Below the pieces are notes generated by a model. The model did no database searches. It saw only the letters and a list, made by a program, of their open reading frames with translations, and was not told where the DNA came from. The translations under genes were made by a program, and so were the position numbers. A stretch of 64,000 nt of DNA from Cyanidioschyzon merolae. Its lineage: Eukaryota. How positions within the stretch are numbered: the stretch's first letter is position 1; each line of letters starts with the position of its first letter. The stretch is from assembly GCA_000091205.1 (NCBI GenBank), contig AP006500.2. One strand, given 5' to 3'. Positions 1-62,757 of the stretch are shown here, piece after piece.

Positions 1-2
1 TG

Positions 3-1655
<1,653 letters not shown>

Positions 1656-2289
1656 ACACGTAAAGTGAATACCCTCAAGATGCCTGCTATCGTCCGCTGC
1701 GGCATTCTCCAAAGCGCGTATCCGCTTGTCGTGGACGCGAATACTGCGTGTCGGCGCTGCAGTTCCGGGACGGCCGCAGGGCCCGCAAGCGCGACACGCC
1801 TCGCTGGCGCGTTCCCGCTGGTAGCTGTCAACGCGAGCTTGTCGTGGGCTTCTCTGCCCAGAGCCGCTGTTATCGGAACCCGGGTTACGGTACTCAAGTG
1901 CGGACAGTGCAGGCAGGGGTCCGCCTAGGTCTGCAACGAGTGCCGCACTGGTCGGCGCCCGCCAGTTCAGATTCGAAGCACATGCCGAAGCGCGTCAGTG
2001 TCACCAGGTCGCTATGAAACGCCAGTGACACTCTCTCCAGATCCAGATACCCAAGTGAGTGACTTATGCTCCTTCAGCGAGTGTCAAGTTCCCGGTGCAT
2101 AAGCTTGCCGAACTGGCGCAGCATGCATCCTGCCAGATGGAAGCAGTTCGATGGTTCACGCTCGCTAGCCTGACGGATCATCTGTAGTCTTTTGTACATA
2201 CCAGGTTTGCAGCCCAGCGAGCCTGGATTCCGATGAAGCACTCGACCGCGATAGCGTACCAGGTCGTCTATTGCAGAGCACGACTTGCA

Positions 2290-31654: not shown

Positions 31655-34278
31655 TGTGCTGGACTAGGCGTCTGTGAGCGACCACGCAGAACTCTATCAC
31701 CAGCGCAAGATCCGCGCCAAGTATCTGGCCCAGCGCTGTAGCAATTATATCCGCAAGAAACACCCTCAAAAGCTCGTTCAACCAGGCTCGGCTGGGTGCC
31801 ACCTCAAGAGCGCCCTGTGAGCGTGTACTGCCGTCGGTTCGCACGGCACCAATTGCCCCTCTACCGCGGGATCCCGTGTCTCAGAATAGGGTCCGAAGTA
31901 CCTGCGTTGAAAAGTCTGAGGTTACTTTCACCTCAGCGCTTCGCTAACTCGGTGAGCGCTCAGAAGAGGCGCTGCGGCGTTACCGCTACGAACGTGGTCC
32001 ACCGCGAGGTTCGTGTTCCCCCTGAAGACCGTCTCGACGAGCAGCCAAGCTCGCGTTTTCGTCTCTCCAAGCAACGTAAAGTTTCGCCCTCCAAAACAGA
32101 CAGAATACCTCTGCAACGAGGCTTTGGCACGTTGATGAATTCCTTCACGAGCGTTTGCGTTTCAGAGCGTTCTGCACAGCACCAGCGCTATGCCCCGGAG
32201 TACTTACACCACACGAAGGCGTTTGAGCAAGCGCGAGCACAGTCCAAAACTGGATCAGGCACTGCTTCACCTGACAACTCGACGATGCGCGAGATGAAAA
32301 CGCTCGGTTCCTGAGTCGATACCAAACGAAAACAAAACCTGTACGCGTTGTGCTGCCTTGCCGCGCTACAAACAGTTTCGGATGCGTGTTATTCGGGGCG
32401 AGGCGTCGTGCGCCCAGCGTGTGACACGTGTCCGTACACACGCATCATCGCTTTGGCATGGACATGCGCGAGGTACGATGCAACTGGGCGAATTTTTTTT
32501 TGTTTCACGGAACGTTTCCATGGATCAGGGATTCCAGATTGCGGGATGCGTATTGGTATTCGGAAAATGAGGGAAAATGCTGCATTCTACGTCCAAGTTC
32601 CATGACCAACACTTCCTCTAGGATATACTGGTCGTTTCGTACGTTCTATCGTGCACCGTGTACCTGCCTTGCTGCACGCGCCTTGGCGCGTATACCGTTG
32701 GTGCGGATGCAGTACGGAGACAGAACGGGATTGGCGTGCCGATGAGGGCTTCCGCTCGAGGAATGTTAGACCCGATACGGAGTCAGAATTCATTATGATT
32801 CTGGGGGCCTGCAAGTTGCGCAGACAGAAGTACTTTATGCGACAGCGCGAAGCGAGATACTAGGACTCAACTGCGACCGGGGCGACGTCCAGACGCAAGC
32901 TACCCGCTCCTAGTCGCAGAAAGAAGTGCATTTCAGACGAGTTGCTGAGATACCACCAAAGTACCCGCCATTTGTGGAGCATGAAGCACTCCACAGACAG
33001 ACTCGTGCGGCTCGCGGGACTTTCCATTTAAAAGGTGAATCTTCGACAATACGGGATCCTTTTCTTCCCTGCAACGCTTGCTGCAGAGCTGGGAAGAAAT
33101 TGCTCTCTCGTTGCTAGGTAGTAGTTCGGTTCTGTTTGTTTTTGCCAGTTCTTCGACATGGAGCGCAGCCCTGATCGCACATCGCCGATGGCAAGAGGCG
33201 GTATCTGCGCGACCAGGTGTGCCTCTGTGCTGCATGGTTAGGGATACTGGTTGCGCAAATGGCAAGCAAGTTGTTGTCGCTGTTGCGTTCAGACCGACGT
33301 CTGCGTGCTCGCACTCCCACACCGGCGCATGGGTATGGTAGAGCATTTTCCAGTTCCGTGCGTTTGGAATCAACAGTTGATTTAGGAAGTCGTCGCAAGT
33401 ACCTACATTGAATGCAGAAGCAGGAGCAGGTGTTGCTGGTTTTGGGAGCCGCCGTCCGACTCCCGCGAGCGCCTCGTAGCACCAGGTCTTGGACCGTTGA
33501 CGCAAAGGCACGGCGTGATTTCTCTGCGGCAAGAGCTGTCTGTCGGGTTTCGGCATGCCGGGCACACTGGACCCTAGCCAAATCCGGACCGGGTCGGGAC
33601 GAAGCTCCCGTATGGCGCACTTGTGTCTGAAACGGTCTGCCTGCGCATCCGGAAACGTTCTCGTTCAGCTGCGCGTCATGTCCAGATGATACCGGGCACC
33701 CGTCGAGCCGCCACAGAAACACGTCGTCCATCTGGGCACGCTTCAAGAGAAATGGGAATGTAGAGGCTGCTAAATGCCAGAGATAGCGCGCATTTACGTC
33801 CTGTTCCCACGAAACCGAGATCTATGCCGCGTCTTTTCCTTCTATCTCACCCGAAGGCACAACGTTCCAGCGGGTCGGATACGTCCGTGATACCTCTATC
33901 GACAAAGAGAACGCGCGAGTGCCACGGTAGGCGCGTATGAACCGTCCGGAAAAGAAGATGCGGACCATCCAGTGGCAGTCTGGAGCCTAACACCCACCAC
34001 CTCAATTGCATACAACGACGATGACGGCTGCCAGAGGCACCCCGACCGAAACTACTTTTCATCAGTGACATTGCAACAACGTATTGGCCGTCCCCAAGGT
34101 ATGATACAGCAGCAAAGCGGGTCCATTCGCAACGCGCACACGTCCTGCACGCACGATAGCCACGCATCGCCCGTGCGGCAACGGCATCGGATGCCCGCAG
34201 CAGCGCCTCGTTTGCCGGATCGCGCGAAACAGGCCCTGGTGCACTCCCATATTGTTCTATTTTGTCCATGCGATCCTA

Positions 34279-36989: not shown

Positions 36990-38950
36990 ACGCTACCGGC
37001 AACGAGAAGGCCGCGAATCCGACGCCGCCACGGGCGATATTCGGAGGTGGTGGCGGCTGCGGCCGCCCGCCGTTGCCAGGATTTCTGGCGGTACGCCTCC
37101 CGGTCTACTTGGACTAGGCACCTGCTGCTGATTTTGTTTTCTGCTTATATGATATCACCTTAAGAGGTTGCCCGACAAAGCTGGCTCTCATTAGCTCCGG
37201 GGGTCGCTTAATCATCAACACGCATCTTTCTATATTGATAGCGGCGTTAAAGTCTCGGTTCACAAACTCTATACGTTGATTGCCGTCGGTAGTTGTACTC
37301 ACCAGTGCGAGTAGTCCAGGAACTTTTGCCCTGCTTTCCATTTGCTGTTTGGTCAGCGCTCCGTACTTTTTTATATCCTCAGAGTTCCACTGGCACTTTT
37401 GCATCTCGACCCTTTGGATTGTACACCTCGGCTCGTGGTGTGTATGTATGACGTTCGGAACTCATCTATCGGTATTGTGAGAAAACGGTGTGCGTACTCG
37501 TTGTACGCTCGTGTCGACGGAGCGGGCGTAGACTCTTTTTCGGACGCCCAGTGCCCTGATCCGTACGCTACTATAAGCCTTTGTCTCTCGTCTTCGTTCA
37601 GGGCACTCAACTGGTTGAAAAAGTTGGCAAATGCACGCTGCTTCCCATAGTATAAGTTCATGTGCTGACGAGCCCACCGGGCGGCTTGGTATACTCCTTT
37701 CACAGCTCCTCGTCATGAGCAGCGCGAAGTGGTATGAATTCTCAGAGGGCTCGAAAGTTCGCTCCGCGACTCGTCATTTTGCTGAACTCCTCCCTGCTTA
37801 CATCGAACTTCGGACTGATCTCTTTCATGATGCCGTAAAGGGCTGCGGAGTCGATTGTCACAAAATGTGCATTGATCTCGCATAACGGAACGACATGGAA
37901 GCGCTTACCCGGAAACGCAGCCATTCGTTTCTCCGACTCTTCATTTGCTTGCACACCTGGTTCCATCTCCGCCTTGCGTTCGAGTTCTCGGTCCAAAAAC
38001 ACGAAAGGGCGCAGGATTAGGCGATAGCATCTTTCTTCATCTTTTTTCAACGCTGGCATCTTTTTGTGCTCAGTTGACAAACCCTAGGACCGTGCGGCGC
38101 TCTTGGATGGCCACATGGAGTAGAGAAGCTTCATTCCTTCTCCTGCGTGACGTCTTCCTGTCGACGAATTCGATCTTCTGTTCATGCTGGCGATCGTCCG
38201 AAATGCCATTGATGATGGTCCGTATCCTTTTGCGAGAGAGGCGCGGGTAGAGTCCAAACATGGAACGTATCATGAAACGTTCGAGGTTCATGTTCAAATG
38301 GTTTTTCAGATTCGTGAGACACTTTTTAGACCCGTATTCATACATATTATCGTGACCCCTGTATCGAGTACTGTTGGAGCGGAATTTGGCGTAATTTTCG
38401 TGGAGGCCCTGCACTCGCTCATTTCTCCTCGACATTTCATATGTGCCCAGTATCAAGTGGCGAATGAAGGTCTTGTTGAAAAATTCCTTCGGAATCTCGG
38501 TTGTTTCCATATGCGTCACGTCGCGATTCGTCTCCCACACCAAATGCACGAGTCCTGAAGAACCGTTTCGAATGCTACTGGAGTAGGACGCCACACGCTT
38601 TCTGATAGTCTCGTCCATCCTTGTCTCGTACGGATCCTTGCAATGTCCAAGAAGACAGGGTTTCACTACCATCTCGATGCACTGTCGTCTTTCTTGCAGC
38701 CATTGACGTCTGGCCTCCTGCCTTAGCTTCTTCGTGTTGTCTCGTTCATCCGGGATCGGCTCTGTTTTCGTTTCTTTCCGTCAGCCGGCGACAGTGGTCC
38801 TCCAGGATCCTCCACTTCCATGTCCATAGCTTGCCTTTTTACTTTTGAAAAAGAACGCACTTTAGACACTTCTGCTATAGACCCCGGAAAATCACTTGAG
38901 TAGACTATACTGGAGATTAAAGTACAATGGAGATGAAAAACTATGCTTCG
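36990..38950 (-). mobile_element. Fanzor/TnpB-like element, copy C (RuvC core partly deleted; N-terminal extension retained)
   Basis: Minus-strand ORFs 37114..37404 (FVNRDFNAAINIERC = RuvC-III), 37371..37703 (VAYGSGHW...IPIDEFRTSY), 37742..38080 and 38070..38672 are homologous to the N-terminal ~400 aa of the 52-55 kb copy, at roughly 55% aa identity. For example, HENYAKFRSNSTRY...KKCLTNLKNHLNMNLERF aligns with HENYAEYRFERTRY...KKYLTNLKNHLTMYPERF. The flanking ends are homologous to copy A at both LE (38760-38950) and RE (36990-37130). The RuvC-I region is absent. Confidence 0.7.
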
Positions 38951-40628
38951 ATATGACTTTAACGCGTATGCACCTTGTACGTTAGATAAACACGCTAAGT
39001 GTAAGGATCGCATTTCCCTTCAATCACGAGATGCGCTTCCTATCTCACGCCTGCCAGATATGATGCTGCGAGTATCGACTGCACTATATAGAAAATAGAA
39101 CAGAAATTATCCAATAACTAGCAACGAGATTGGGATTCCTTTCCGTCTCTACGATAAACGTTAAAAGGAGGAAAACGTTTCCACACGTTCAAAAGTCTAC
39201 CGTATAGGCGGAAGGTCCAGCGACCCGGAAGAGTGCGCCGGGCTCGTGCTCCATACCCCCAATAGCAGGTGCTTTAGAGCGATCTGAGCAGCTCGTATCG
39301 AGCGCAATTCATTCTGGGATTCGAAGCGGGTAGTACGCGCCTGCGCGTCGCCCTGGTCTCCTTAGATATCGATTCGCGCTGTCGCAGGCAGTAGGTCCGT
39401 CTGCGCAGCTTGCAGGCTCCCAGCATGATCATTAGCCCTGATCCCGTGTCAGGTGTTGCGTTATTCGAGTCGACACCCTCAGTGGTATGGCGAAGCCGTT
39501 TTGTCTCCGTGCAGCACCCGCTCCAGCGATATAGGCGCTATGGTAGGTTCCCAGGACAGGCACTTGGCTTACGATAGAACGCAAGAAACGACCGGTGCGT
39601 CCGAAAGAATGCATAAGTAATGGAGCTTGAAGGTAGATGCTTCATGATGGACGCTTTCCAGATCATCAATACCCGTCCCGCAGCAAGGGATCCATGGTCA
39701 CGATAAACGTTTCGTCATCTGAAAAAATGACAGCGGCTGCACGAAAGATTGCGCAAAGCGTTGGCTGATCGCCGCATATTGTTTGTTGGATGCGAGCATG
39801 TTGTCGATGCGTCTACATGGGTACGGCAATGGCAGCGCCTATTTGTTTGAACGCACTATGATTCCTGAAAGCAAGTCTGAGCGGCTAGTCGCACGACCTG
39901 TGGACTTGTGCAGCATGACGAATGCTGGTCTTGATACTGATCGTCATCGCACCGTTGGGGTTCCCAGGCTCGGTTCAACGATCCCACTCGATTCGAAAAA
40001 TCGATTCTGGAGCGTCCAAGCAGCACGTGCCTACTCAAGAAACCCTCATGGAAGGCACCAGCGCGCTTCTTCGCTCCACAGAGCCGACGAAGGTCAGTGG
40101 CAGCAAGGCGGTATCGATGCTGATATCACGGGCGGAAGATCTCACGAACGTAAACAGCCCCCGTTTAGCCATTTTTGACACGGAGGAAGCCCTGTCACAA
40201 CGCCACGGTTCCGCCCAGTGTGCCAGTGAAACACGGAAACCGCGATGCATGTTTCCGAGCTTCGCACATCTCATCAAGGCTTTCACGTTTGTTCTGCGTA
40301 GTCCTCTGAAAAATTTCCGGTGTGCCTTGGAGCCGGCCCCGGTTTCCATTTACAAAATAGAGGATTCTGTAAGCCAAAGGTCTTCCTATGCGTACAACAG
40401 CGCTGCTGGTCGGATGTGTTTCAGCAGTATCGAACACCTTGCGCAGCGTTGCGAGGCGAGAGCCCCGTTCACGGCACCCGATGCGGTCGATAGCCCTGTA
40501 TCATCATCCACGTGAGCATCCCGCACAACATTAACCGGCTTCGCAAGGCAGCACTAACCGTGGAATACGCACCGGCATCCGGTTCACGGACTCTGCAAGA
40601 TACATTCACTGCGCGTCAGTGCAGGCCG

Positions 40629-48411: not shown

Positions 48412-51400
48412 GTGTCGTTCGCGGTGGCAATGGCGTTCGTTACTTTCGGGGTCGTGTCTGGAGGCACCGGGCGGCAACCGCTAGCTGACAGGTCACCGGC
48501 GTTCTTGAATCAGCACCCAAGAAAGACAAGCCGATCGGTGCGGTGTCGACGGCGAAGATTCTCGCGTAAAGTGTCTCGAAGATGTCTGCTGAAGCTCTGC
48601 AGCGTTGCTGAACGACAGTCATCCGACTCGGTGCGACGAGAGCAGGGACAGAAGCGGGGCAGCAGTAGCAGCGCCAGCAGCCGTGATGAGCGCTATGCGC
48701 GGAACGCAGCGGAACAGCGCCAGGCAAGCGACTCTGTATCGACGGAGACGCGAGCCCGAGTGTCTCGAGCGCTCCTACAGGGCGCGCAGGGGGTGGGCCT
48801 CGGCCTCTACTGGATTGCTCGGCAAGCGGTGCGTGTATGTGTGCCGATGGCTCGCTCGGCGTTTAGCCAGCTGTCAACGCTTGTGCAAGACCATTCCAGT
48901 CGCGCGTTCACCTCAGTGGGGGTCCAATCACAGCCAGAACCGCATCATAAGCCGTACGTTGCATCTGAAGCGGACGAGGCAGCGCGGGCGCGGCCTAACG
49001 ACACAGCCGTTGGTGCGGATCGTGCTCAGCGGCGATCTAATCATAAGAAACGGGGGCCACGTTCAGGTCCACCATCGGGAGCGAATGCTCCAGAGCAAGC
49101 AGACGAGATGTCAGCTCGACTGCGGAGAAAGTACCTTCGATCGTTTGGGAGCATTCCGGAAGTTGTACTCTTTGACCTTGTCGCCGAATGTGAAATGCGA
49201 AAGCAATTTGCGCTACCAGAGGAGACTCCATCAAATATGTCGCTTTTAGGGCAGCGAGCCTGCTATATCCCGTATGAGCTGCAGCGCATTATTTTCGACG
49301 AAATTTTGACGCCAGATTTTGCCGCCTCTGACGCTGACCGCGATCTGTTTCAGAGCAGCAATACATCCATTCCGCTCGGCGCCAAACACACGTTGCGAGC
49401 TACAGACGGCTCAGCGGCGTCCACCCCGAGAGCACCCGAGGTCGCTGTGCCGGTTCCCGTTCATATCATGGATTCGCTGGTGGCGGCTGTGGCACCCTGG
49501 AGCGCCGGCACTGGGAGTCCGGGGAGCGCACCAAAGGCGGCAAATTCGCCGAATGATTGGAGTCAAACTGCGACAGCGCCTCGAGTCGGGGTCCAGGGCG
49601 AGTCGCCGGCATCTACTTCCAACCTGGACGATATGGTACCTGCAGCAGCAGCAGCAGCGGCAGCAGCAGCAGGGCAAGTATCCGTGGATTCTTCCGCCCG
49701 CAGGGGCAGCATGCTGTACATCCCGATATCGGCGCTCGGGAGCTTGTGGCAAGCCATCTCGGCAATGAGTGCGGGCGGACGCAAACGGCGCGAGGAGGCG
49801 CAACGTATTCGTACGTACTCGAATGCCGCCGACGCTATGGCTCGCGAGGATGCCGTTATGGCGGGTCTCGCTGGCGCAGACGGTGGAAGCACCATGGCCT
49901 CGGCATTTGCAACAGCGAGCGCCATTATGGCGAGCACACCGACGCGATCGCCATCGATACCCGTGCAGGGCGCCGAGGCTGGAACTACCGCTAGTACGCG
50001 CGAAACGGAACAGAAGGCCTCGCGTCCAACAAATGGATCCGTGGAATCAATCGAGGTATTGAGCAGACCGCAGGCATCGGCTGCCAACTTGGGCAATCAG
50101 CAGAAGCGAGATCGCACGGAGTCGAAAGAGGGGACGGGTGCGAAGCAGAGCGCACCAGTGAACCCGTCATCAGCGTCTGCTGCATCCGCTGCAGCTACCA
50201 GTACAGAAGTAGCTGCAGCGGATGCAGCAGAAAGTCCTCTGTCGAAAGACAAGACGAGAAACTGGTGGTCGACGCTTTTCTCGTTTACTTGGCCACGCCC
50301 GCGGAACGCTGTCGACTCGGGATCTGCGACTGCGACTAACTCGGAGGATCATGCAATTGAATCCATCCAGCGCCTGTTGCTTTCACGACATTACGGGGCA
50401 GGCGCTGGCCATGGCCCTGTGGATGCTGCCGTCTTCGATGAGCTCGTCGATCGAGTGGAGCAGCTGACGCTTCGCGCTGCAGCAGAAGCGGCCATGGCGA
50501 TTCGCACGCGAAAACAAGCCATTGCATTTCTGGAAGAGGTAGGTGTGGCACCGTTGTTGAATGCACTGAGCATGACGGACTCGCTGCAGCTCTCGAGGCC
50601 GGATGCTGGACGCCGCAGGAACAGCAACAGCAACACCAACCTAGACGATGAAACCGCATCACAGAGAAAGCGCCCACAACAAGAACAGCAACGTGAAGCC
50701 GCCTTCACGGTATCCCTAGCTGTGGCTGCACTCGCAAATCTGACCAACGTCTTGCCTCGCTGCAAACCGCAAATCCTTCGTTATCCAGGCCTCTTGGATG
50801 GTCTGTTGCGTATCTTGGAAGCACCGGTAGCCGGAGAGTCATGGGAGATGCAAGGCAAGTGGAGCGCATGTATGCTCATCGGCACCCTGATGATGGATGC
50901 TGCCACGAGCGATCGTGCCCTCTTCTTCCGGAATCGTCGACTGGTTCGCGTGCTCGAGTCCATGGCAGGCGGCACACGGGTCGGCTACCCGGAGGATGTT
51001 GCACGGGCATCGCGTCGGGCGCTCGCTTGTCTGGGCGTGCATCACTGGAGGCCGCGCGTTCGAGGCCAGCGCGGTTTGCGCATCCTTGCACTTGACGGAG
51101 GTGGCACTCGGGCGCTCATGTCTTTCGAGATTCTGAAGCACCTAACCAAATTGACTGGCTGCCAGTTGCATGAAATGTTCGATATCATTTGCGGAACCTC
51201 GACGGGGGCGATTATTGCCGGCTCGTTGGGGATTCGCCGGCGTCCAGTTGAGGAGGTCGAGAGCCTCTACCGTGAACTAATCGGCAAAATTTTCGCCAAA
51301 AAGCTGAGCAGTGCGCCGAAAATGTTGCTCACTCGGGCCTACTACGATACGGACTTGTTTGAGAGCATTCTGAAACGTGAGGCAGGCTCATTGCGGATGA

Positions 51401-52284
51401 TTGATTCCACCATGGACCGGGATATGAACTACGTGTTCTTCGTAAGCTCCGTGATGAATCGACGTCCGCACCAGCTGCATCTGTTTCGAAACTATTGCCA
51501 CGCACCAGGCCAGGAGTCCAGATACCCAGGGACTGTGGATGCAACCCTATGGCAGGGTATGCGGGCCTCGTCGGCGGCTCCGACGTTTTTTTCGGAAATT
51601 GTATTGAATGGACTCATTCACGCAGATGGAGCTCTGGTTGCGAATAATCCCGCAGGGGTGGCAGCGCACGAGGCACGCCGCTTGTTCCCGAATGTGCCTA
51701 TCGAGCTCTTGGTGAGCGTGGGAACCGGAGTCGCCGAGAAGACTAGCCCTCTATCGCCGCTAAGCACCACGGACAGTGGTGTGTCCACGGGCACCAGAGA
51801 GGGCAGCGGTGGCGACGGCGGTGCCTCAACCGAGAGCGAAGCTGCGAGTGCGCTTCGTGAAGCTGCCACGACTTCGGCGATTTCCGCAAGTGGTGGTGAT
51901 GGTGCAGATGCCGCAGCTGCTGCCGTCCCGAGCCGAATGAGCTGGAACGACGTGATCAACTCGATTGTGGACTCTGCAGTCGGCACCGAGAGTGTGCATC
52001 ACATCCTGGAAGATGTGTTGCCTGCAGATGTTTATTTTCGATGCAATCCAGAGATCAGCGTGATGAATATTGATGAGGTTCGTCCCGGCAAGCTCATGGA
52101 AATGATTCGATGTGCACAGGACTACATCGCCGCGAATGCTGATCGCTTTGATGAGTTAGCGGCACGGCTGCGCCCGAAAATGCCCCAGAATTTACTAGAA
52201 CGGATCCGTTTTGAGCTGCAACAGGAGGCCAGTCTGATTCTCGACTTGGACGATGCACGGGAAGGGCCACTTCCTGCGCTTTAG
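48412..52284 (+). CDS. Patatin-like phospholipase (iPLA2-like) with long N-terminal low-complexity and ARM/HEAT-like region, 1290 aa
   Basis: The patatin catalytic motifs are the oxyanion-hole LALDGGGTRAL, the nucleophile elbow GTSTGAI (GxSxG) and the catalytic Asp in IHADGALVANNPA (DGA/G). They are preceded by repeats such as LANLTNVLPRC...LLDGLLRILEA. The N-terminal ~600 aa is low complexity, and the true start may be downstream of 48412. Confidence 0.85.
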   Translation: MSFAVAMAFVTFGVVSGGTGRQPLADRSPAFLNQHPRKTSRSVRCRRRRFSRKVSRRCLLKLCSVAERQSSDSVRREQGQKRGSSSSASSRDERYARNAAEQRQASDSVSTETRARVSRALLQGAQGVGLGLYWIARQAVRVCVPMARSAFSQLSTLVQDHSSRAFTSVGVQSQPEPHHKPYVASEADEAARARPNDTAVGADRAQRRSNHKKRGPRSGPPSGANAPEQADEMSARLRRKYLRSFGSIPEVVLFDLVAECEMRKQFALPEETPSNMSLLGQRACYIPYELQRIIFDEILTPDFAASDADRDLFQSSNTSIPLGAKHTLRATDGSAASTPRAPEVAVPVPVHIMDSLVAAVAPWSAGTGSPGSAPKAANSPNDWSQTATAPRVGVQGESPASTSNLDDMVPAAAAAAAAAAGQVSVDSSARRGSMLYIPISALGSLWQAISAMSAGGRKRREEAQRIRTYSNAADAMAREDAVMAGLAGADGGSTMASAFATASAIMASTPTRSPSIPVQGAEAGTTASTRETEQKASRPTNGSVESIEVLSRPQASAANLGNQQKRDRTESKEGTGAKQSAPVNPSSASAASAAATSTEVAAADAAESPLSKDKTRNWWSTLFSFTWPRPRNAVDSGSATATNSEDHAIESIQRLLLSRHYGAGAGHGPVDAAVFDELVDRVEQLTLRAAAEAAMAIRTRKQAIAFLEEVGVAPLLNALSMTDSLQLSRPDAGRRRNSNSNTNLDDETASQRKRPQQEQQREAAFTVSLAVAALANLTNVLPRCKPQILRYPGLLDGLLRILEAPVAGESWEMQGKWSACMLIGTLMMDAATSDRALFFRNRRLVRVLESMAGGTRVGYPEDVARASRRALACLGVHHWRPRVRGQRGLRILALDGGGTRALMSFEILKHLTKLTGCQLHEMFDIICGTSTGAIIAGSLGIRRRPVEEVESLYRELIGKIFAKKLSSAPKMLLTRAYYDTDLFESILKREAGSLRMIDSTMDRDMNYVFFVSSVMNRRPHQLHLFRNYCHAPGQESRYPGTVDATLWQGMRASSAAPTFFSEIVLNGLIHADGALVANNPAGVAAHEARRLFPNVPIELLVSVGTGVAEKTSPLSPLSTTDSGVSTGTREGSGGDGGASTESEAASALREAATTSAISASGGDGADAAAAAVPSRMSWNDVINSIVDSAVGTESVHHILEDVLPADVYFRCNPEISVMNIDEVRPGKLMEMIRCAQDYIAANADRFDELAARLRPKMPQNLLERIRFELQQEASLILDLDDAREGPLPAL

Positions 52285-52500
52285 GGGATGGACAAGCCAC
52301 CACCGCCGTTCTAAGTCGAACGACGCCAACGGTATACAGTAGTGGCGACCGGCGCCCTAGACGAAACGTCTCCAACTGACGTGCAGACGCCTCCCCGCCT
52401 TTTTGGACCGGCCACCTACTACTGCTTCCAACTTTTTCTCGTATAGTTCGACTTTGAGAGGTTGTCCAATAAAGTTCCCTCTTCATGACTTTGGAGGTGT
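52285..52500 (-). ncRNA. Predicted omega-RNA (guide RNA scaffold) region of Fanzor-like copy A, overlapping the C-terminal codons and the 3-prime tail
   Basis: The ~200 nt at the 3-prime end of the element is far better conserved at the DNA level between copies (2290-2410, 52285-52480, 56160-56280, 59385-59500) than the ORFs are. It contains the block gcgtctgcacgtcagttggagacgtttcgtctagggcgcc and the block gccactactgtacaccgttggcgtcgttcgac (minus-strand reading). In TnpB/Fanzor systems the omega-RNA maps here. Confidence 0.4.
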
Positions 52501-54794
52501 TTTCTCCAGCACCGCACATCTCCGTATATTGATAGCGGCATTAAAGTCTCGGTTCACAAATTCCATACGTTTCTTCCCATTGGTAGTTGTACTTACTAGT
52601 GCACCTAGTCCTCGCACTTTCGCTCTACTTTCCATTTGCTCCTCCGTCAGCGGTCCATACTTTTTCATATCCTCAGGGCTCCTCTGGAAATTTTCCATAT
52701 CCACTCTCTGAAGTGTACAACCCAGCTCATGGTGTGTGCAGGACGTTCGAAACTCATCTACAGGTATTGTAACAAAACGCCTTGCGCACTCCTTGTACGT
52801 TCTTGTCGTTGGAGCTGGCGTAGTTCCTTTTTGGGTCTTCCAGCGCCCTGCTCCATACGCTATTACGAGCCTTTGAGTCTTGTCTTCTTTGAGGGCGCTC
52901 AACTTATTGAAAAAGTTCGCGAATGCCCGCTGCGTCCCACCGAATAGATTCATTCGCAAACGAGCCCACCGGGGCTTGATATACCCCTCCCACAGCGCAT
53001 CCCAATGGGCAACACGAACTTCCATGAATTTCCGAAAAGCTTCAAAGTCCGCGCCTCGGCTCGTCACCTCGCTCGAAGATTCCAGGTGATCCTTCATTCC
53101 TGCATTCCATGCAGCAATTTTCTTCCTTGCATTCATTATACCGGACTCTCGATAGTATCTTGCTCTCGAGAACCTCAACAAATGCATGTCTTTCAGACGT
53201 AAGTTGCCGTCAATGCAATCTTCCGCACACTTTGGTGCTGCGATGGTAATGATATTCGTGTTCCCAGGGTCCATGCCAATGACAAAGTCGTTATCCTGCA
53301 CTTTCTGCGCCGCAGGACCCGCCTCGTTCTTTTCTTCATGCTTCGTCGCGTCAAGCATAAAGGCGTTATCCTGCACCTCCTGCATCACAGGATCCGCCTC
53401 CTTCCCAACTTCATCCTTCGTCACATCAACGATAAAGTCGTTACCCTCAATCTCCTGCGCCACAGGATGCTCCTCTTTGTTTTCTTCATGCTTCGCCGCG
53501 TCAACGACAAGCTTGTTATCCTCCACCTCCTGCGTCGCAGGTTCCGCCTCCTTCTCATCTCCATCCTTCGCCACGTCAACGAGAAAGTCATTATCCTCCA
53601 CCTCCTGCGTCGCAGGATACACCTCTTTGTTTTCTTGATCCTTCGTCACGGGTGCAGCCGAGTGAGGGACTGGCCGATCTCTCTTCAACCGCCGATAGTG
53701 TGCACACAAGGCTACTCCATCGGTTTCGATCATCCCAGTGAACAACTTTTGCTTGCTCACTCTCAGGCGTTTGAAATCGAAGATGTTCTTCCAGTACGTC
53801 TTCCGGTTTTCACCGGAGAATTCCTCCCTGCTGACACTGAACCCCGGACTGATCTCCTTAAAGATGCCGTAAAGGACGCCGGAGTCGATAGTCTCAAAAC
53901 TTGAATTGATCCTGGACAACGGATCAGCGTGGGAGCGATTCTCCAGAAGCGCAGCCTTCCCTCTCTCCGACTATTCGTTTTTTCCACACCCGGCTCCATG
54001 TCGGCCTTGCGTCCGTGCTTTCGGTTCAGAAACATGAAACAGCGCAGGATTAGTTGATAAAATCTCTCTTCGTGTTTTTTCATATTAGGTAATTTTCCTG
54101 TTGGACTGAGTAGCCCCAAGACCGCACGGTGCTCTTGAATAGTCGCGCGGATTACGGAAGCTCCATTTGTGCTCCTGCGTGATGTCTTCTTATCGACAAA
54201 TTCGATCTCATCTTCATACTTTCGATCGTTCGTGATGCCGTTGATCATCCCCCATATTCCTTTGCGAGAGATGCCCGGGTAGAGTGCAAACACGGCGCAT
54301 ATCATGAAACGTTCCGGGTACATAGTTAAATGGTTCTTCAGATTCGTGAGGTACTTCTTCGGCCCGTAGGCGTAAATACACGAGTCAACCCTGTATCGGG
54401 TACGCTCGAAGCGGTATTCGGCGTAGTTTTCGTGGAGAGCGTGCACTAGCACATTTTCCTTCCGCGCTTCCCCTGTACCAAGCATCAGGTGACGAATAAA
54501 GGTCTTGTGGAAAAACTCGTCTGGAATCTAGACCGTTTCCATGTGCGCCACATCGCGATACATCTCCCTCGCCAAATGCATCAGTCCTGACGACGTCTTG
54601 ACAATACTCTTGGAGTACGAGTCGACACGTTTTTTGATAGCGTCCCGCAACTTTTCCTTGTAGGGATGCTTGATATGTCCAAGAAGAAAGGTTTTCACCA
54701 CCATCTCGTCGTACAGCCGTCTTCCTTGCCGCCTTCGACGTAGGGCCTTACCGTTTCGGTCCTTCTTCTCTTCTTTTTGTTCTGGACTCGGCAC
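52483..54794 (-). pseudogene. Fanzor-like RNA-guided endonuclease homolog (TnpB-like RuvC nuclease with N-terminal extension), disrupted by one in-frame stop and one frameshift as assembled
   Basis: Motifs as for the parent element. D-x-NAA-x-NI is the TnpB/Cas12 RuvC-III signature and G-x-D-x-G-x-T/N the RuvC-I signature. The lesions could be real or could reflect unannotated introns or assembly error. Confidence 0.7.
53270..53650. repeat. About six units of a ~63-bp tandem repeat inside the copy A ORF (encodes acidic 21-aa repeats EVxDNxFxVDxxKxExxKEAxPA)
   Basis: Visible as repeated ...tcaacga(c/g)aa(a/g)(g/c)t(c/t)(g/a)tt(a/c)tcct(g/c)cacctcctgc(g/a)tc(a/g)caggat(c/a)c(g/a)cctcc.. units. 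The last unit runs straight into the RuvC-I motif [13 protein letters not shown]. Confidence 0.8.
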
Positions 54795-55238
54795 TATATT
54801 TGGGTTTTTTTGGCAGCCGGCGACACTGGGCCTCCAGGATCGTCGACTTGCTATTTACTAGCTTTTCCGTTTTTTAGTTTTTTTTTGAAAAAGAACACTC
54901 TTTGAACGCTTCTTTTATATTCTACGAATAAACACTTGACTAGACTTGTTTGAGGGCTGGAACAAAAACGAACTGAAAGACTGTACCTGGCTAAGACCTC
55001 AACAGAAAACCAACTTTTTACAGCTGAACACCACGCTATTGATACCAATCGAGTTTCCCTTTAACGGCGACGCGGCGCTTTCGGAACTCGATCCGCCGCA
55101 TCTCCCGGCTGGATCCTGCTGCGGTTCAGAGACCGCAAGTCGAAAAGTGTGTGGCTGTAGTTGAAGGCAAATATGGTGCACCACGCGGCAGTAAACAACA
55201 GAAATAGGTTGTGAGACGCGACAGTCGTGCGATGAAGT

Positions 55239-56030
55239 GTGTGGCGGCTTCTGCAGCGCTCGTCGTCAGCCACTCTTTTAAAACATATTGTCGTTCTTCT
55301 ATCAACTGTGTTTGCAGAAGACTCTACTGTAAAACGTTTGACCAGGTGTGATTCGAAACGATCGGAAATGTTGCGCAAAGTATCCTTAGTGTTCCTGGTG
55401 ACCCTGCTCTACGTGCTCGCTGCAGTTGTGTCGAAGCCGGTGCGTGGGCTCTCTCAGAGCAGCACGATTGCCGAGCTGCTCGCTGCGTCTCCAAGCTCGT
55501 ACCTGCAGAACGCGCTCACAAGCGGTGCGTTTCTCGTGAATAACTCAGCCGGAAGTATTCAGTTGTTTGACGTTACACAGAACTCGTTGTTAACGAGCGT
55601 GGGCCTCTCTACCCTGATATCCACGTTGAACAAGTGCGGTATCCAGGAGCTGCACGTGCAGACGGACGCGATCGAGTACGCGTACGTTGTTGAGGGTGAG
55701 GGCACTTTCACGCTGTGGTCGTCTAACGGCTCGGTGGTATTGTTGAAGGCCCCCTTGAAGCCTGGCGACGTGGCGATTATTCCAGCCGGCTGGCCGCACT
55801 TTTTCACCGGGTCCGAGACGTCCACGACGCCGCTGGTCTTTGTCTCGACATTCACCAGCGGAGAGCCACAGGTTTATTTCCTGGCTGGTGCTGGGAATCT
55901 ATTCGCGAACGTGCCATCCGAGGTCGGTAGCAGTCTGTTTAATGTTACCGCGTCGCAGTACGGATCGTTTTTCAGAGCGGAATCGACTGTGGGTGTCGTC
56001 TTTAATGAGACCTGTTTGGGGAATGCCTGA
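55239..56030 (+). CDS. Cupin/germin-like protein with an N-terminal hydrophobic anchor or signal
   Basis: A 263-aa ORF with a hydrophobic stretch LVFLVTLLYVLAAVV. Cupin motif-2 is matched by PGDVAIIPAGWPHFFTG (G-x5-P-x-G-x2-H-x3-G/N). A motif-1-like region reads GIQELHVQTDAIEYAYVVEGEG. The gene sits between two Fanzor-like elements. Confidence 0.5.
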   Translation: MWRLLQRSSSATLLKHIVVLLSTVFAEDSTVKRLTRCDSKRSEMLRKVSLVFLVTLLYVLAAVVSKPVRGLSQSSTIAELLAASPSSYLQNALTSGAFLVNNSAGSIQLFDVTQNSLLTSVGLSTLISTLNKCGIQELHVQTDAIEYAYVVEGEGTFTLWSSNGSVVLLKAPLKPGDVAIIPAGWPHFFTGSETSTTPLVFVSTFTSGEPQVYFLAGAGNLFANVPSEVGSSLFNVTASQYGSFFRAESTVGVVFNETCLGNA

Positions 56031-56159: not shown

Positions 56160-58640
56160 TAGCGAGCCCCTTTCAAAACAAAAACGCTGCCGCTATCAGT
56201 ACAAAAGTGGCTACCAACGCGCCCTAGACGAAACGTCTCCAACGGACGTGCAGACGCTTCCCAGTCTTTTTGGACCGGCCACCTACTACTGCTTCCAACT
56301 TTTTCTCGTATAGTTCGACTTTGAGAGGTTGTCCAACAAAGTTCTCTCGTGTCCACTCTGGAGGTCTTTTCTCCAGCATCGCACATCTCCGTATATTGAT
56401 TGCAGCGTTAAAGTCTCGGTTCACGAATTCCATACGTTTCTTGCCATCGTTCGTTGTACTCACCAGTGCGAGTAATCCCCGAACTTTCGCCCTCCTTTCC
56501 ATTTGCTCTTCCGTCAGCGGTCCGTACTTTATTATATACTCAGGGCTCCTCCGACGCTTTTCCATCTCAACCCTTTGAAGTGTGCACCCCAGTTCATGGT
56601 GTGTAAACGATGTTCGGAACTCATCTATTCGTATCGTAACGAAACGCCTTGCGCACTCCTTGTACGTTCTTGTCGTTGGAACTGGCGTGCTCCCTTTTCC
56701 GGGTACCCAGAGCCCTGCTCCATACGCTACTACAAGCCATTGGCTCGTCCCCTTTGAGGGTGCCCGACTCATTGAAAAAGTTGGCAAATGCACGCTGTTT
56801 TCCGCAGTACAGATTCATATGCAGACGAGCCCACCTGAGCTTCGCGTACTCTTCACACACCTCCTCGTCATGAGAAACGCGAATTTTCATGAATTTCGGA
56901 AGAAAAAAAGAAAGTTCAATCGACGGCTCGTCACGTGCCTGATCGCTTCCAGATTCTCCTTCACTCTTGCGTTCCATTTCTCACTTTGATTCCTCGCATT
57001 CATCATTGCTTGTTCTCTGTACTAACTCTCTCTCGAGAACTTTAAACGACGCATGTCGCTCTGGCATAAGTTGTCGTCAGCGCCATCTTCCAAACGTTTG
57101 GGTGCTACGATGGTTATTACATTCGTGGTCCCGAGGTTAAGGCCGACGACAAGATCGTTATCCTGGGGATTATACGTGCCAGGGCCCGTCTTCTTGTGTT
57201 CGTGCTTCGGCAAGGGCGACAATGTAGATGAGGTAGGACGATCTGCCTTCAAGCGCTGATAGTGTACACATATGGATTTCCCATTGTAATCGATCGTCCC
57301 CGTGAATGCCATTTTTTGCTCGTTTTGAGGCTCTTGAAATCGAAGATATTCTTCCAGTACGTCTTCCGGTTTTCACCGGAGAATTCCTCCCTGCTGACAC
57401 TGAACACCGGACTGATCTCCTTAAAGATGCCGTAAAGGACGCCGGAGTCGATAGTCACAAAACTTGAATTGATCCTGGACAACGGATCAGCGTGGGAGCG
57501 ATTCTCCAGAAGCGCAGCCTTCCCTCTCTCCGACTATTCGTTTTTTCCACACCCGGCTCCATGTCGGCCTTGCGTCCGTGCTTTCGGTTCAGAAACATGA
57601 AACAGCGCAGGATTAGTTGATAAAATCTCTCTTCGTCTTTTTTCAAATTAGGTAATTTTCCTGTTGGACTGAGTAGCCCCAAGACCGCACGGTGCTCTTG
57701 AATAGTCGCGCGGATTACGGAAGCTCCATTTGTGCTCCTGCGTGACGCCTACTTGTCGACAAATTCGATCTCATCTTCATGCATGCGATCGTTCGTGATG
57801 CCATTGATAATTGCCCAGAATCCTTTGCGAGAGATGCCCGGGTAGAGTGCAAACACGGCGCATATCATGAAACGTTCCGGGTACATAGTTAAATGGTTCT
57901 TCAGATTCGTGAGGTACTTCTTCGGCCCGTAGGCGTAAATACACGAGTCAACCCTGTATCGGGTACGCTCGAAGCGGTATTCGGCGTAGTTTTCGTGGAG
58001 AGCGTGCACTAGCACATTTTCCTTCCGCGCTTCCCCTGTACCAAGCATCAGGTGACGAATAAAGGTCTTGTGGAAAAACTCGTCTGGAATCTAGACCGTT
58101 TCCATGTGCGCCACATCGCGATACATCTCCCTCGCCAAATGCATCAGTCCTGACGACGTCTTGACAATACTCTTGGAGTACGAGTCGACACGTTTTTTGA
58201 TAGCGTCCCGCAACTTTTCCTTGTAGGGATGCTTGATATGTCCAAGAAGAAAGGTTTTCACCACCATCTCGTCGTACAGCCGTCTTCCTTGCCGCCTTCG
58301 ACGTAGGGCCTTACCGTTTCGGTCCTTCTTCTCTTCTTTTTGTTCTGGACTCGGCACTATATTTGGGTTTTTTTGGCAGCCGGCGACACTGGGCCTCCAG
58401 GATCGTCGACTTGCTATTTACTAGCTTTTCCGTTTTTTAGTTTTTTTTTGAAGACGGACGCGTTTCTTACGTGTCTACTATAAACCACGAAAAACACTTG
58501 ACTAGATATGTTTGAGGTGTGAAACAAAAACGAACTGAAAGACTGTACTTGGCTACGACCTGAACGGAAATCCAACTTTTTTCGGTAGAACAACACGCTA
58601 CTGATCAGGATGGCGTTCCCCTTCGACGAAGGCATGCGCA
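56160..58640 (-). mobile_element. Fanzor/TnpB-like element, copy B (rearranged, internally deleted)
   Basis: Minus-strand ORF 56224..56793 carries VAYGAGLW...IRIDEFRTSFTHHELGC...FVNRDFNAAINIRRC and the full C-terminal tail ...GKRLHVRWRRFV. The fragments 57022-57682 and 57749-58357 are near-identical to 54000-54900 of copy A. ORF 58091..58357 is 88/88 aa identical to ORF 54528..54794. Confidence 0.75.
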
Positions 58641-59384
58641 TCGTGTCAGTTGACTGACTGATCTCCCAGTTGCGCTCATTTAGCGCAATGCATCCACTGC
58701 GCGCGACGCTACTCCGATCGATGAAGGACACGTGTCCGATACCCCGCCTTGGCACATGCGTGTTCGCATCCCACTGCAGCCAAAATAAAGTATCGTAGAT
58801 CGCAAACTCACGTAGAATGATCTCTTGCTACAGGCTCTGTCGCTGGTGCCCATTGCAGTACCGCCCTGACATACGTGGAGATGTAGGGGCCTGGCACGAT
58901 ACCTCGCGATGCTTCTAACAAAAGCATCGCGTTCTCTGCGGCTTACACTTGTGTGGATAAGGTACACAACACTGTACTCAATAGAAATTTCGTTAATTTT
59001 ATTGATCGTATATAAACAAGACACGGAATGATTCCTGACCAAGGATATTCGTTTAATCAATATGCTTGTTATGCATGCCGCACCGACACTGGAATAAGGA
59101 CCTGAACTGAAATTTGCATCTATCCGGCGTCATGGGCTGGAACTGATACCCGTTCAAGTCATTGCCATCCTGCCGTGGTTGTCCAAGTAATGGTGCCTGC
59201 TTCGTCCTCCGGATCCGGCGATCTTGGCAGAGGCAGAGCACGTAGGTAGCGTCCAAGTCTGCCACGAGGTTTGAGCCTTGCATCTCGCCTGGCACGATCG
59301 TGGCACTTGACAAAAGCGCATACTGTATTCTGGTCTACTCTATCAGATTATTTTCAAGAGCCTAACCCGTACATCGAGCCCGAA

Positions 59385-59650
59385 CGAGGCACCCCTGGAA
59401 AGAAACGCCTTTCGAAAGTCGAACGGCGCCAGCGGTGTACAGTAGTGGCGAGTGGCCCGCCCTAGAAATGACGTCTGCAACTGACGTGCAGACGCATCCA
59501 AAATAAGATACCACCTCAGGAAATTTCCTTATACCTCCTCTACGGTATTCGTCGGCGAGCTACGTGGAAGTTCGTCTACGATTGTTGTGATCTCTGAGCG
59601 CAGCACTGCGGAACCCTTGGCACCAATTACTGATGAGGTTGTTGATGGGA
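59385..59650 (-). mobile_element. Isolated 3-prime tail fragment of the Fanzor-like family (copy D; no adjacent nuclease ORF)
   Basis: The stretch ctggaaagaaacgcctttcgaaagtcgaacggcgccagcggtgtacagtagtggcgagtggcccgccctagaaatgacgtctgcaactgacgtgcagacgcatcc is near-identical to the tails at 2290-2410 and 52285-52400. Similarity decays by ~59650, and no RuvC-encoding ORF is seen between 59650 and 59880. Confidence 0.65.
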
Positions 59651-59880
59651 AGCATAGGAGTTCTGTCTAGTTTCTGAAAAAGACACTGAGCGCTTGTGCT
59701 AGATGTGCTCAACGCTAGACAGTCTACGGGAGATTTAGGTCGGACTCTGGACAATTGACGGGCGATCACTCGTGCAGCTACGCAAAAGAAGTTTTTTGCT
59801 GGATACGCACACCTATGCGAGCGATTCTAGCCGGTGACGTGATCGGCAGCTTTGCACCGGAGAAAATCTAATCCAAGAAA

Positions 59881-61090
59881 ATGCAAGCCCTATTCGTTTC
59901 TGTTCCGCTGTACCAGGAAAGACATATTGTTTGCGCGCGCGCTGCAACTCGAGCACCGTTCCCGCTGTGTACCGAACATGACAGGTGCTTCGCAGCTCGA
60001 TACCGTCACCGCTGTCACCATCCGCTGCCCGTGGGGGTGCAGCGTTCGCCTGTAGTGCGCCGGCATCGTATGCCGCATCTTCGTATGGGCCCGAAACAGT
60101 CGCAGATCGCCGTGATCACTGGCTCGTCCTCTGGGGTCGGTCTGTATGCAGCTCGCGCTCTGATCAACAAGGGCAACTGGAACATCGTCATGGCATGTCG
60201 TGACGTCGACCGGGCGGAACGTGCAGCAAACAGCGTGAACCTTCCAAAGGACGCCTATACAGTGCTGCATTGTGATCTGGCAGATTTCGCCTCTGTGTTG
60301 AAGTTTGTGAGAGCGCTATCGAGTGTGGCGCGCATCGATCACCTGGATGCCCTGATCTGCAATGCCGCAATATGGCATCCGCAGGACAAGAAACCGCGTT
60401 TCACGGTGGGCGGCATCGAGGAAACCATGCAGGTTTGCCATCTGAGCCATTTGCTTCTCTGTGGGGAGCTGTTGCCGAAGCTGAAAAAATCGCGCAGGCG
60501 CATTGTGTTTCTGACGACTCAGACACACTCGCCGAATTCGTTGCCGGGAAAGATCCCCCGCTGGCTCGTCTCGGGGATTCGTCTAGTCTAGCCGCGGGGC
60601 TTGGTCCGCAGACGACGGACATGGTAGAAAGTGGCCCGTTTGAGCCCACAAAAGCTTTCAAAGACGCCAAAGCCGAGAACGTGTTGACAATGAAGGCGCT
60701 CAGTGATCGATACGGCCGCGACGGGGTGACCTCTGTGGCGATTTTCCCGGGATGTGTCGCCGACAGCAACCTCTTCCGCGAAAAGCGTGGCTGGTTCCGC
60801 TACGTATTCTTCCCGATTCTTCAGAAGTACATCACTCGGCAATACTTTCCCAATGATGAGGCCGGACGCCGTGTAGCCGAAATGGCGACCCAGGGACAGT
60901 TCTCGGACTCGGGCTCGTATTATCAGTGGCGTGGCAAATATACGGATGGGGGATAGAAGACGAAACCGCAGGTTATTGAACCAACGTACGAAATCGACAA
61001 GGCAGATCAGCTTTACGAACTGAGTCTTGATCTGATCGACCAGGCTTTACGGAGGCGAGGCCTCAAGTCGACTACCTTGGTCCCTGTCTA
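59881..61090 (+). CDS. Light-dependent NADPH:protochlorophyllide oxidoreductase (LPOR, SDR family). As assembled it has a 1-nt frameshift in a C5 run at ~60553-60557 and an in-frame TAG at 60957-60959. The mature domain probably starts near 60100.
   Basis: Frame 1 reads IAVITGSSSGVGLYAARALINKGNWNIVMACRDVDRAERAA...YTVLHCDLADFASVLKFV...LICNAAIW. Frame 2 reads GKDPPLARLGDSSSLAAGLG...AFKDAKAENVLTMKALSDRYGRDGVTSVAIFPGCVADSNLFREKRGWFRYVFFPILQKYITRQY. Together these align colinearly with plant and algal POR (ITGASSGLG...VIMACRD...YT.MHLDLAS...NAAVY...YKDSKVCNMLTMQE...YPGCIATTGLFREH..LFP.FQKYIT.GY). After the TAG the frame continues KTKPQVIEPTYEIDKADQLYELSLDLIDQAL, which aligns with the POR C-terminal helix. 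Confidence 0.8.
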
Positions 61091-61437
61091 AGGTTTGTTA
61101 GTGATGAATATGGGATGCGCCTTCGAAGCGCAGACCGCTGCGTCAAGGACGCATGTGGGAGCAACAGCGTAACGATGAAACGGCAACCCACTGTTACGAT
61201 CGGATAGTGATCGGGTGAAAGGGCACTCCTCCTGATGTGGAGAACCAAAATTGCTTCGCAAGTCATAAAGCGTACTGCAGTAGTGATTAATATAGCTATA
61301 GCTATGACCTACTTCGCATCGAATGCGCCAGAGAATGCTAACTGCGGTCGTTCAAGAGGGCAGAGCGCGTTTATTTGGGTAATCTGTAACTCTTTTTGCC
61401 ATAAAGGATACGGCAATAGAGGCGAACTTGCAGACGT

Positions 61438-62757
61438 TTGAACAATATGTGGGTATTCGATATCAAACTGGGTCAACGGGCATGGATTAATGGAAGCTCG
61501 GTAGTGAATACTCCAGCAAGATATGGAGCATTGAGCGAGTCAGGCCCGAATAGTGTACCAAGTACTCGCTATGGATCAGCTTTCTGGAACATCAGATGGA
61601 CCGATTCGATCATATTTGTTGGAAATGGATACATAAACACGAGCGGCAGTTACTTTCTCAATGATGTGTTTGCATTGAGGAAAGCATTTCCTACTCCAAC
61701 ACCAAAACCTACGCGGACACCCACCCCCATCTGCACCGATGAGCTCTGCGGATCTCCAGGACAGTGCATCAACCAGGACGCTTACGAGCGAGTCGGGTGC
61801 TGCTTCAACGCCCAGACAAACGCGTGCACCCTGAAGAGCGTCTCAGCGGCGTGAAGCGCTGTTCCAGTGACGCAGCGCGTCACCTGCGGTTGGAGCTACA
61901 TCTACCCTGATGAGTGCACTGCGATACCGGGATGCTGCTGGCAGCCCACAGCGAACGGCATCCTCGCGCCCTGGTGCTACTACGACATCGACCATGCACC
62001 CCAGGCTTCTGTAGCGCTGCAGGAGGTGCAGGCACCGGTTCCCGTCTGCCCGTCACCGGGAGCGCAGCGCCAGCCGTGCGGCAACGCGGGTATCAACCAG
62101 TTTACCTGGTATGCCCAGGGCTGCTGCTACGACTCGCAGGCGCAGAACCAGTGGGTGCAGAACGGCAAGCAGCAGAGCGACTTTGCGTCGAACCCGTACT
62201 GCTTCCAGCCCGAGAAGACGTGCGCGGTGGGCGAGCTTGAGCGCCAGCCGCGCACGAACGCGCTGAATCAGAACCAGCAGCTGACCAACAATAACATCAA
62301 CAACAATAACCAGTTTGTGCGTCTGCTGAACACGCTCCAGTGCGGAGAGCAGCACGGGACGCAGCGCACGAGCTACGCGCCGTAGCAGTGTCTGGAGGCT
62401 GGTTGCTGCCTGGGGCTCGGCAACGAGTGCTTCCAGCCGGTTACTGAGTACGTGTGCCAGACCTACGGGTACGTCTCGAACTCGCTGAGCGGCACGACCG
62501 GCAACGTGTCGAACTCGACGTATATTCCGTGCGGCCCGGAGTGCTGCAACGCCGAGATAGAGAACTGTACGTACAACCCGTTCAGCAACAGCAAGAACCT
62601 GCGACAACAGCAGCAGCAGCAACAGGTGCTGTTGCCGTCATTCTGTGTATGCAAGGACCCTACAAAGCAGTGCGGGACGTACCTGATCCCTTCGGACAAC
62701 CTTGTGAACAAGGTGCGTTCCTGCCGCTCTGATCAGGAGTGCATCAGCAACGAGTGA
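61438..62757 (+). CDS. Putative secreted kelch-repeat plus Thr/Pro linker plus trefoil(P-type)-like cysteine-rich protein; probably multi-exon, with frames changing at ~61855 and ~62390
   Basis: ORF 61438..61854 reads PARYGA...RYGSAFW...IIFVGNGY (kelch-like), then TPTPKPTRTPTP, then CTDELCGSPGQCINQDAYERVGCCFN. ORF 61867..62385 reads CPSPGAQRQPCGNAGINQFTWYAQGCCYDSQAQNQWVQNGKQQSDFASNPYCFQP, which matches the trefoil consensus (RxxCG..GI...C...GCCfD....pwCF). ORF 62452..62757 is a further Cys-rich segment with a Q7 run. Confidence 0.4.

Follow-up and report, generated by a model that had tools for sequence, protein, structure and literature searches.

Fanzors were shown in 2023 to be RNA-guided nucleases, and the organism considered here, the thermo-acidophilic red alga Cyanidioschyzon merolae, grows at ~45 °C. 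Two published descriptions of repeats of this alga bear directly on the DNA analyzed here, a stretch of 64,000 nucleotides from contig AP006500.2 that is called the window in the following and to which all positions refer. First, 253 copies of a 3.2-kb "WSV486-like" interspersed repeat were reported, which is transcribed, makes up ~5% of the C. merolae genome and contains a truncated open reading frame (ORF) weakly similar to WSV486 of the white spot syndrome virus (WSSV; Nozaki et al., 2007). Second, the family CMe-1A was classified as Fanzor1, and of its about 150 copies, which agree with a ~3-kb consensus at ~80% identity, some are still intact (Bao and Jurka, 2013; Mobile DNA 4:12, PMC3627910). 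It was described as being without terminal inverted repeats (TIRs), target site duplications (TSDs) could not be determined, and the first 635 bp at its 5' end are identical to a separate element, TE-N2_CMe, which is present in ~70 copies (Bao and Jurka, 2013). In later work, the silencing mark H3K27me3 was found on half of the annotated repetitive elements of the genome, a set comprising the "WSV repeats" and transposons. The repeats in the window are very probably decayed copies of CMe-1A, a known Fanzor1-carrying interspersed repeat of C. merolae, and the finding is thus already known, since a description of the same repeats appeared in 2007 and their classification as Fanzor1 followed in 2013 (Nozaki et al., 2007; Bao and Jurka, 2013).

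In the window, a single ~3.2-kb element is represented by five copies, some of them fragments, and its 5' module occurs once more on its own. That these belong to a single repeat family was confirmed by a blastn self-comparison (52001-55400 against the window) and by comparison with the CMe-1A consensus (3169 bp, taken from supplementary file 2 of PMC3627910), which aligns to all five copies and to the solo 5' module with 77-89% DNA identity. An earlier note on this DNA had counted at least six copies with 55-90% identity. Related sequence was indeed detected by blastn at all the places it listed, far above what chance would yield, but only five copies are independent, the sixth (59385-59650) being part of the 5' region of copy B, and the pairwise DNA identity as measured by blastn is 71-94%. 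Copy A (52304-55070, minus strand; consensus 702-3169, 82-89% identity by blastn) is 5'-truncated and carries two frameshifts and three in-frame stops. Its ORF, described before as nearly full length at ~800 aa, is nearly complete with 808 aa, but only once these five lesions are repaired, and the tblastn matches of the CMe-1 protein (734 aa, likewise from the supplements of the paper) lie in three reading frames. The repaired translation aligns end-to-end with the CMe-1 protein, with 548 identities over 708 aligned residues (~77%, 1058 bits; BLASTP), and the gaps of the alignment, except for small ones near a repaired frameshift, are accounted for by four additional repeat units of 25 aa. In tblastn, aa 4-734 of CMe-1 are covered in copies A and B. 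Moreover, the copies show the behavior of transposable elements: their flanks differ, 5' truncations occur, the exact 3' end is shared, and lesions are numerous. In the earlier note, the repeats had been called a proliferating family rather than a host gene; this was overstated as to proliferation, nothing in the window being functional or evidently proliferating, as all copies are decayed.

The assignment to Fanzor1 was supported by profile comparison and by structure prediction. An exhaustive profile search resulted in 1549 relatives at E≤1e-3, one of which comes from the volvocine alga Tetrabaena socialis; close relatives come only from hot-spring metagenomes, and a second, word-seeded homolog search with the broad alignment yielded almost only the same close relatives. 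The profile of an alignment of 74 full-length diverse relatives, which are ~30% identical to the C. merolae protein (alignment A2), matched the solved Fanzor1 proteins among the PDB sequences, i.e., PpFz1 (9CF0, E=7.5e-21), SpuFz1 (8GKH, E=1.5e-12) and GtFz1 (9CER, E=9e-8), with the GxDPG, DEFRTS and NRDxNAA blocks aligning to RuvC-I, RuvC-II and RuvC-III, respectively. A narrow profile made from close relatives only (A1) gave no match to PDB sequences. An AlphaFold model built from the shallow close-relative alignment reached a predicted local distance difference test score (pLDDT) of 33 and was discarded; the AlphaFold2 model obtained with alignment A2 has a pLDDT of 81 and a predicted template modeling score (pTM) of 0.79. 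This predicted fold strongly matches Fanzor1 only (roughly E≤1e-12): in the Foldseek search of the PDB the top seven matches are all Fanzor1 (E from 4e-15 to 2e-12, template modeling (TM) score up to 0.73), followed by Cas12i and Cas12f at E>0.02. The earlier note had named the lack of any profile or structural similarity to the TnpB/Fanzor RuvC fold as the outcome that would speak against it; such similarity was found by profile and by Foldseek alike. Since both the profile and the predicted fold match Fanzor1 and the RuvC blocks align, the Fanzor interpretation stands, and the CMe-1 protein, with which the family of the window agrees, is supported as a Fanzor1 by homology and predicted fold.

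The three RuvC motifs are located where the earlier note had placed them and in the order it gave. On the minus strand of copy A, RuvC-I is GMDPGNT with the catalytic Asp (53257-53277), RuvC-II is VDEFRTS with the catalytic Glu (52741-52761), and RuvC-III is NRDFNAAINI with the second catalytic Asp (52525-52554). Each of the three catalytic columns, D484, E656 and D725 in the numbering of P0001, is invariant in 74/74 relatives, and the motifs follow each other in the split RuvC order I-II-III. Equivalents of the three blocks were located in the other copies of the window, where in copy B the catalytic Asp of RuvC-I is changed to Asn (GLNLGTT, 57124-57144).

From this homology a mode of action may be proposed. 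An active CMe-1A would be ~3.2 kb long: a non-coding 5' module that varies would precede a single ORF of ~734 aa without introns, which would be followed by a short 3' end closing in a hairpin. The product of the ORF is predicted to comprise a basic stretch at its N-terminus, helical parts similar to REC and WED, and a split RuvC nuclease whose triad is Asp/Glu/Asp. Judging from its homologs SpuFz1, PpFz1 and GtFz1, the protein would most likely bind a guide RNA (omega/fRNA) transcribed from the 3' end of the element, and, thus guided, it would cut DNA matching the sequence just past this 3' end. Such cleavage is thought to aid persistence or spread of the element, and transposition itself would be done by an enzyme supplied in trans.

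The conservation of the ORF and of the 3' end is consistent with parts of this proposal. Over most of the ORF, conservation follows the codon positions in the order second, first, third, e.g., 0.95/0.95/0.76 (80 metagenomic copies and the window), from which we infer that much of the divergence of the family accumulated under selection for the protein, i.e., under purifying selection during diversification. This agrees with the remark on intact copies by Bao and Jurka (2013). Toward the end of the ORF, over its final ~170 nt, the conservation of the third codon position is raised. The 3' boundary of the element is exact and common to the copies and the 5' ends are variable. At this boundary copy A ends in a hairpin (52304-52325, minus strand), which was read directly from the sequence as CGTCGTTC-GACTTA-GAACGGCG. 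Across the family, 38/55 copies fold their last ~25 nt into a hairpin (z<-2), and the stems at this position are of three unrelated sequences, suggesting that it is the structure itself that is kept. The hairpin was scored by folding each copy separately, as the two common variants pair in different alignment registers and column-wise counts under-rate them; RNAalifold on the last 230 nt gave three pairs only. The terminal hairpin of copy A is a candidate for a transposon-end signal acting as DNA or for the 3' stem of a guide RNA, and a guide RNA located at the conserved 3' hairpin is plausible.

Several results weigh against this reading or against parts of it. As to activity, truncation, stops or frameshifts affect all copies of the window and none is able to encode the protein (tblastn), and intact ORFs are rare in the family, with one near-complete type among 80 related metagenomic loci. 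As to the guide RNA, a hand-built five-helix RNA model of the last 160 nt showed no covariation beyond that of shuffles, and the Rfam scan gave no match for the hypothetical guide RNA; the tRNA scan was likewise empty. As to mobility, neither TIRs nor TSDs were found for the element, there is no transposase ORF in or beside any copy of the window, and the other ORFs of the 5' regions are without Pfam match. Finally, as to the nuclease, a C4 zinc finger between RuvC-II and RuvC-III was not found, 67/74 relatives having at most two Cys in this interval, and the match of Pfam PF07282 (TnpB/Cas12f-type TNB) at RDFNAAINI stays below threshold with E=0.22.

The lack of a transposase ORF beside any copy had been pointed out before; inspection of ORFs and Pfam matches confirmed it, in agreement with Bao and Jurka (2013). 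More specifically, no ORF for TnpA, be it a Y1 HUH enzyme or a serine recombinase, adjoins the copies of the window, and the neighbors in two metagenomic contigs are ordinary host genes. One explanation of the mobility is that CMe-1A is a non-autonomous rolling-circle (Helitron2/Helentron-like) transposon that carries the Fanzor1 as cargo, an explanation limited to the class of mobility and compatible with the mode of action proposed above. It would account for an element without TIRs and TSDs whose 3' end is precise, conserved and closed by a terminal hairpin and whose 5' ends vary or are chimeric, and it finds a parallel in green algae, as the protein has a relative in Tetrabaena and the Fanzor1 elements of Chlamydomonas are non-autonomous Helitron2 elements. 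The flanks fit as well: a T-run lies directly upstream of the 5' end in most TE-N2-type copies (GATTTTTTT / CGATGAC...), as an example at 39720-39735 and 32495-32510 in the window and in loci L033, L060, L072 and L080. The 3' flank often starts with TTTG(G/T)TG, and both features could reflect a target-site preference or terminal bases of the element that were not recognized as such. Furthermore, positions 5-14 at the 5' end of the consensus are matched, in inverted orientation over 10 nt, by a site located 69 nt before its 3' end, a match that occurred in 0/300 shuffles. However, this match is kept in none of ten individual full-length copies, and support for the idea of asymmetric TIRs is limited to the consensus and absent from single copies. 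The element also lacks canonical Helitron termini, no Rep/helicase gene turned up in an analysis that included no search aimed at one, and Bao and Jurka (2013) left CMe-1A unclassified although Helitron2 was defined in the same paper. Altogether, a rolling-circle type of mobility appears rather unlikely for these repeats.

A second explanation concerns the protein, which might be nuclease-dead or re-purposed as an RNA-guided DNA binder, the cause being the zinc finger lost from its TNB domain. The earlier note had read a zinc-finger motif, C-x6-C, after RuvC-II. The Cys directly following DEFRTS is specific to copy A, the consensus protein having Tyr at this position, and the motif therefore rests on a Tyr-to-Cys change in a clade without the C4 finger. 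Among the relatives, 67/74 are without the C4 finger, all inspected C. merolae sequences included, and the interval between RuvC-II and RuvC-III contains only one Cys-rich column (72%), which is Leu in C. merolae. Of the signature D-X(125,275)-[TS][TS]-X-X-[C4 zinc finger]-X(5,50)-RD given by Bao and Jurka (2013), the D...TS...RD parts are present and the C4 zinc finger is not. Pfam and NCBIfam models gave nothing above threshold on the ORFs of the window, only the weak match of PF07282, and the precomputed assignment is PF26935, "DUF8286," only. As judged from the aligned sequences, the CMe-1 clade, including the protein of T. socialis, has lost the C4 zinc finger. Yet the triad is invariant in all of these 74 divergent relatives, which is not expected of a dead enzyme, and the predicted overall fold is still similar to that of active Fanzor1 structures, so that a dead nuclease is improbable and a Fanzor1 that would still cut without the finger is the preferred reading. 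Least of all do the copies appear to be host genes dispersed as a family or what is left of integrated genomes of large DNA viruses rather than a transposable element; the first description was built on weak similarity to the WSSV ORF WSV486 and Fanzors are common in large DNA viruses, but the copies stand singly amid ordinary host genes (patatin-like, cupin, short-chain dehydrogenase), have exact common 3' ends and different flanks, are truncated and full of stops, no viral genes were seen in their neighborhood, and both variants were rejected on genomic context and decay as scarcely credible.

Going beyond the Fanzor1 assignment, the CMe-1 clade with its >1500 detectable relatives, including green-algal ones, might represent a distinct zinc-finger-less Fanzor1 lineage that is still an active RNA-guided nuclease, uses a guide RNA ending in the 3' hairpin and resides on an unrecognized element of the rolling-circle type. 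This combination is speculative and we consider it doubtful. If it were true, it would provide a Fanzor that is structurally reduced and tolerates heat by nature, and it would add a new association of a Fanzor with a transposon.

The further copies differ in extent and in the way they have decayed. The core of copy B (56169-58663, minus strand; consensus 671-3167) has at least three frameshifts and six stops. As a whole, copy B comprises 56169-59828 on the minus strand, the core being joined to an alternative 5' region of ~1.2 kb whose homology extends to at least 59828; a host gene begins at 59881. This 5' region is also present in five metagenomic copies, L017 (97%) and L072, L006, L047 and L059 (76-82%), and its 5' boundary is a lower bound, as the metagenomic loci are cut at their ends. 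The 3' flanks of these copies, where available, differ. On this homology, copy B is a member of a subfamily in which an alternative ~1.2-kb 5' region replaces TE-N2. The 5' region includes a 94-bp duplicate of the element's 3' terminus (59406-59499, minus strand; consensus 3073-3169) together with its hairpin, the segment that had been counted before as a sixth copy. It was also considered as a terminal direct repeat or as a separate fragment, and both were rejected, as homology among the B-type copies continues at least 330 bp further upstream. Copies A and B (52335-55061 against 56200-58623) agree at 94% identity over the first half (5') of the ORF and at only 78-82% over the second (3'), a mosaic that suggests gene conversion or recombination between adjacent copies.

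Copy C (2315-3391, minus strand; consensus 2093-3169, aa 397-734) and copy D (3358-4399, plus strand; consensus 2110-3169) each represent the 3' third of the element only and are arranged head-to-head; copy C is in one reading frame with one stop. They meet at a junction at 3358-3391, and their break points almost coincide in the consensus (2093 and 2110), both falling within the region of the 75-bp tandem repeats. As the arms are only 72% identical, the head-to-head structure is either old or arose from two events at a fragile spot. Copy E (37093-39719, minus strand; consensus 2-3080) has a TE-N2-type 5' end and seven stops; consensus 1951-2400 including RuvC-I is deleted, and it is truncated at its 3' end at consensus 3080, the last 90 bp being gone. 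Its end had been placed at 38950, but alignment with the consensus shows that it runs to 39719. In addition, a solo TE-N2_CMe-like 5' module at 32511-33136 (plus strand; consensus 10-632, 79% identical) was absent from the earlier list of copies.

Just N-terminal of RuvC-I, copy A contains an in-frame tandem repeat of five units of 75 bp (25 aa) at 53277-53650 on the minus strand (Tandem Repeats Finder). The number of units varies between family members from one to at least five, with one in the consensus, two in L001 (10540-10621), three in L002 (11221-11376) and five in copy A. Disorder is predicted for the repeat segment (pLDDT<50 at model residues 375-469), which is the sole disordered part of the AlphaFold2 model. 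The internal deletion of copy E and the truncation points of copies C and D fall in or beside this tandem-repeat region.

The window is located on chromosome 18 of C. merolae 10D, close to its right end. Two of its long ORFs are identical to C. merolae 10D proteins, the GATA factor BAM82651 and CMR487C, and a DEAD helicase, a condensin, a kinesin and a patatin-like lipase are among the remaining large ORFs, all of them ordinary host genes without introns. Only ~20 nt separate the 3' end of copy A from the stop codon of a patatin-like host gene in convergent orientation (1290 aa, 48412-52284), and because of this short distance copy A probably overlaps the 3' untranslated region or the terminator of this gene. 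At the right edge of the window, the ORFs 59881-60591 and 60372-60956, which overlap and differ in frame, represent a short-chain dehydrogenase gene that is possibly a frameshifted pseudogene (59881-60956), and a trefoil-domain ORF follows downstream of it (61867-62385). The stretch from 59881 to 62385 resembles subtelomeric gene sets of C. merolae chromosome ends, and the gene content of this edge fits the subtelomeric gene sets described for the C. merolae genome.

As a discovery the locus matters little, because the family had already been reported as the commonest repeat of C. merolae (2007) and as Fanzor1 (2013). It is a good positive control, as a reading of motifs alone recognized a very divergent Fanzor that is missed by Pfam. 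Moreover, it is of specialist interest as a red-algal Fanzor1 clade from an organism living at ~45 °C that is without the zinc finger typical of TnpB and Fanzor proteins.

Among the known systems, the copies of the window are closest to CMe-1A (Bao and Jurka, 2013) and thereby to the WSV486-like repeat (Nozaki et al., 2007): they belong to the same family of ~3.2 kb without TIRs. The TE-N2_CMe module of CMe-1A is common to copy E and the solo copy, whereas copies A and B are without it, and the ~1.2-kb 5' region of copy B with its duplicate of the 3' terminus marks a subfamily absent from the main text of Bao and Jurka (2013); nothing essential differs. Compared to the solved Fanzor1 proteins SpuFz1 (8GKH, 9CEU), PpFz1 (9CF0) and GtFz1 (9CER), CMe-1 is similar in profile (E from 1e-7 to 1e-20) and in predicted fold (Foldseek E~1e-15, TM 0.5-0.73), has the same order of WED/REC parts and RuvC-I/II/III and is, like them, found on eukaryotic transposons. 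However, the identity to these proteins is only 12-15%, the zinc finger (CxxC...CxxC) that separates RuvC-II from RuvC-III has apparently been lost from the CMe-1 clade, and the RuvC-III of this clade is the canonical RDxNAAxNI, which is nearer to TnpB/Cas12f than the motif of SpuFz1. In contrast to bacterial TnpB of IS200/IS605 and IS607 elements (OMEGA), CMe-1 has no TnpA partner, is about twice as long with an N-terminal extension of the eukaryotic type, scores below threshold with the Pfam TnpB models and is without the zinc finger, yet it has in common with bacterial TnpB the split RuvC nuclease arranged as D...E...RD, the location on a transposon and a conserved structured 3' end at the element boundary.

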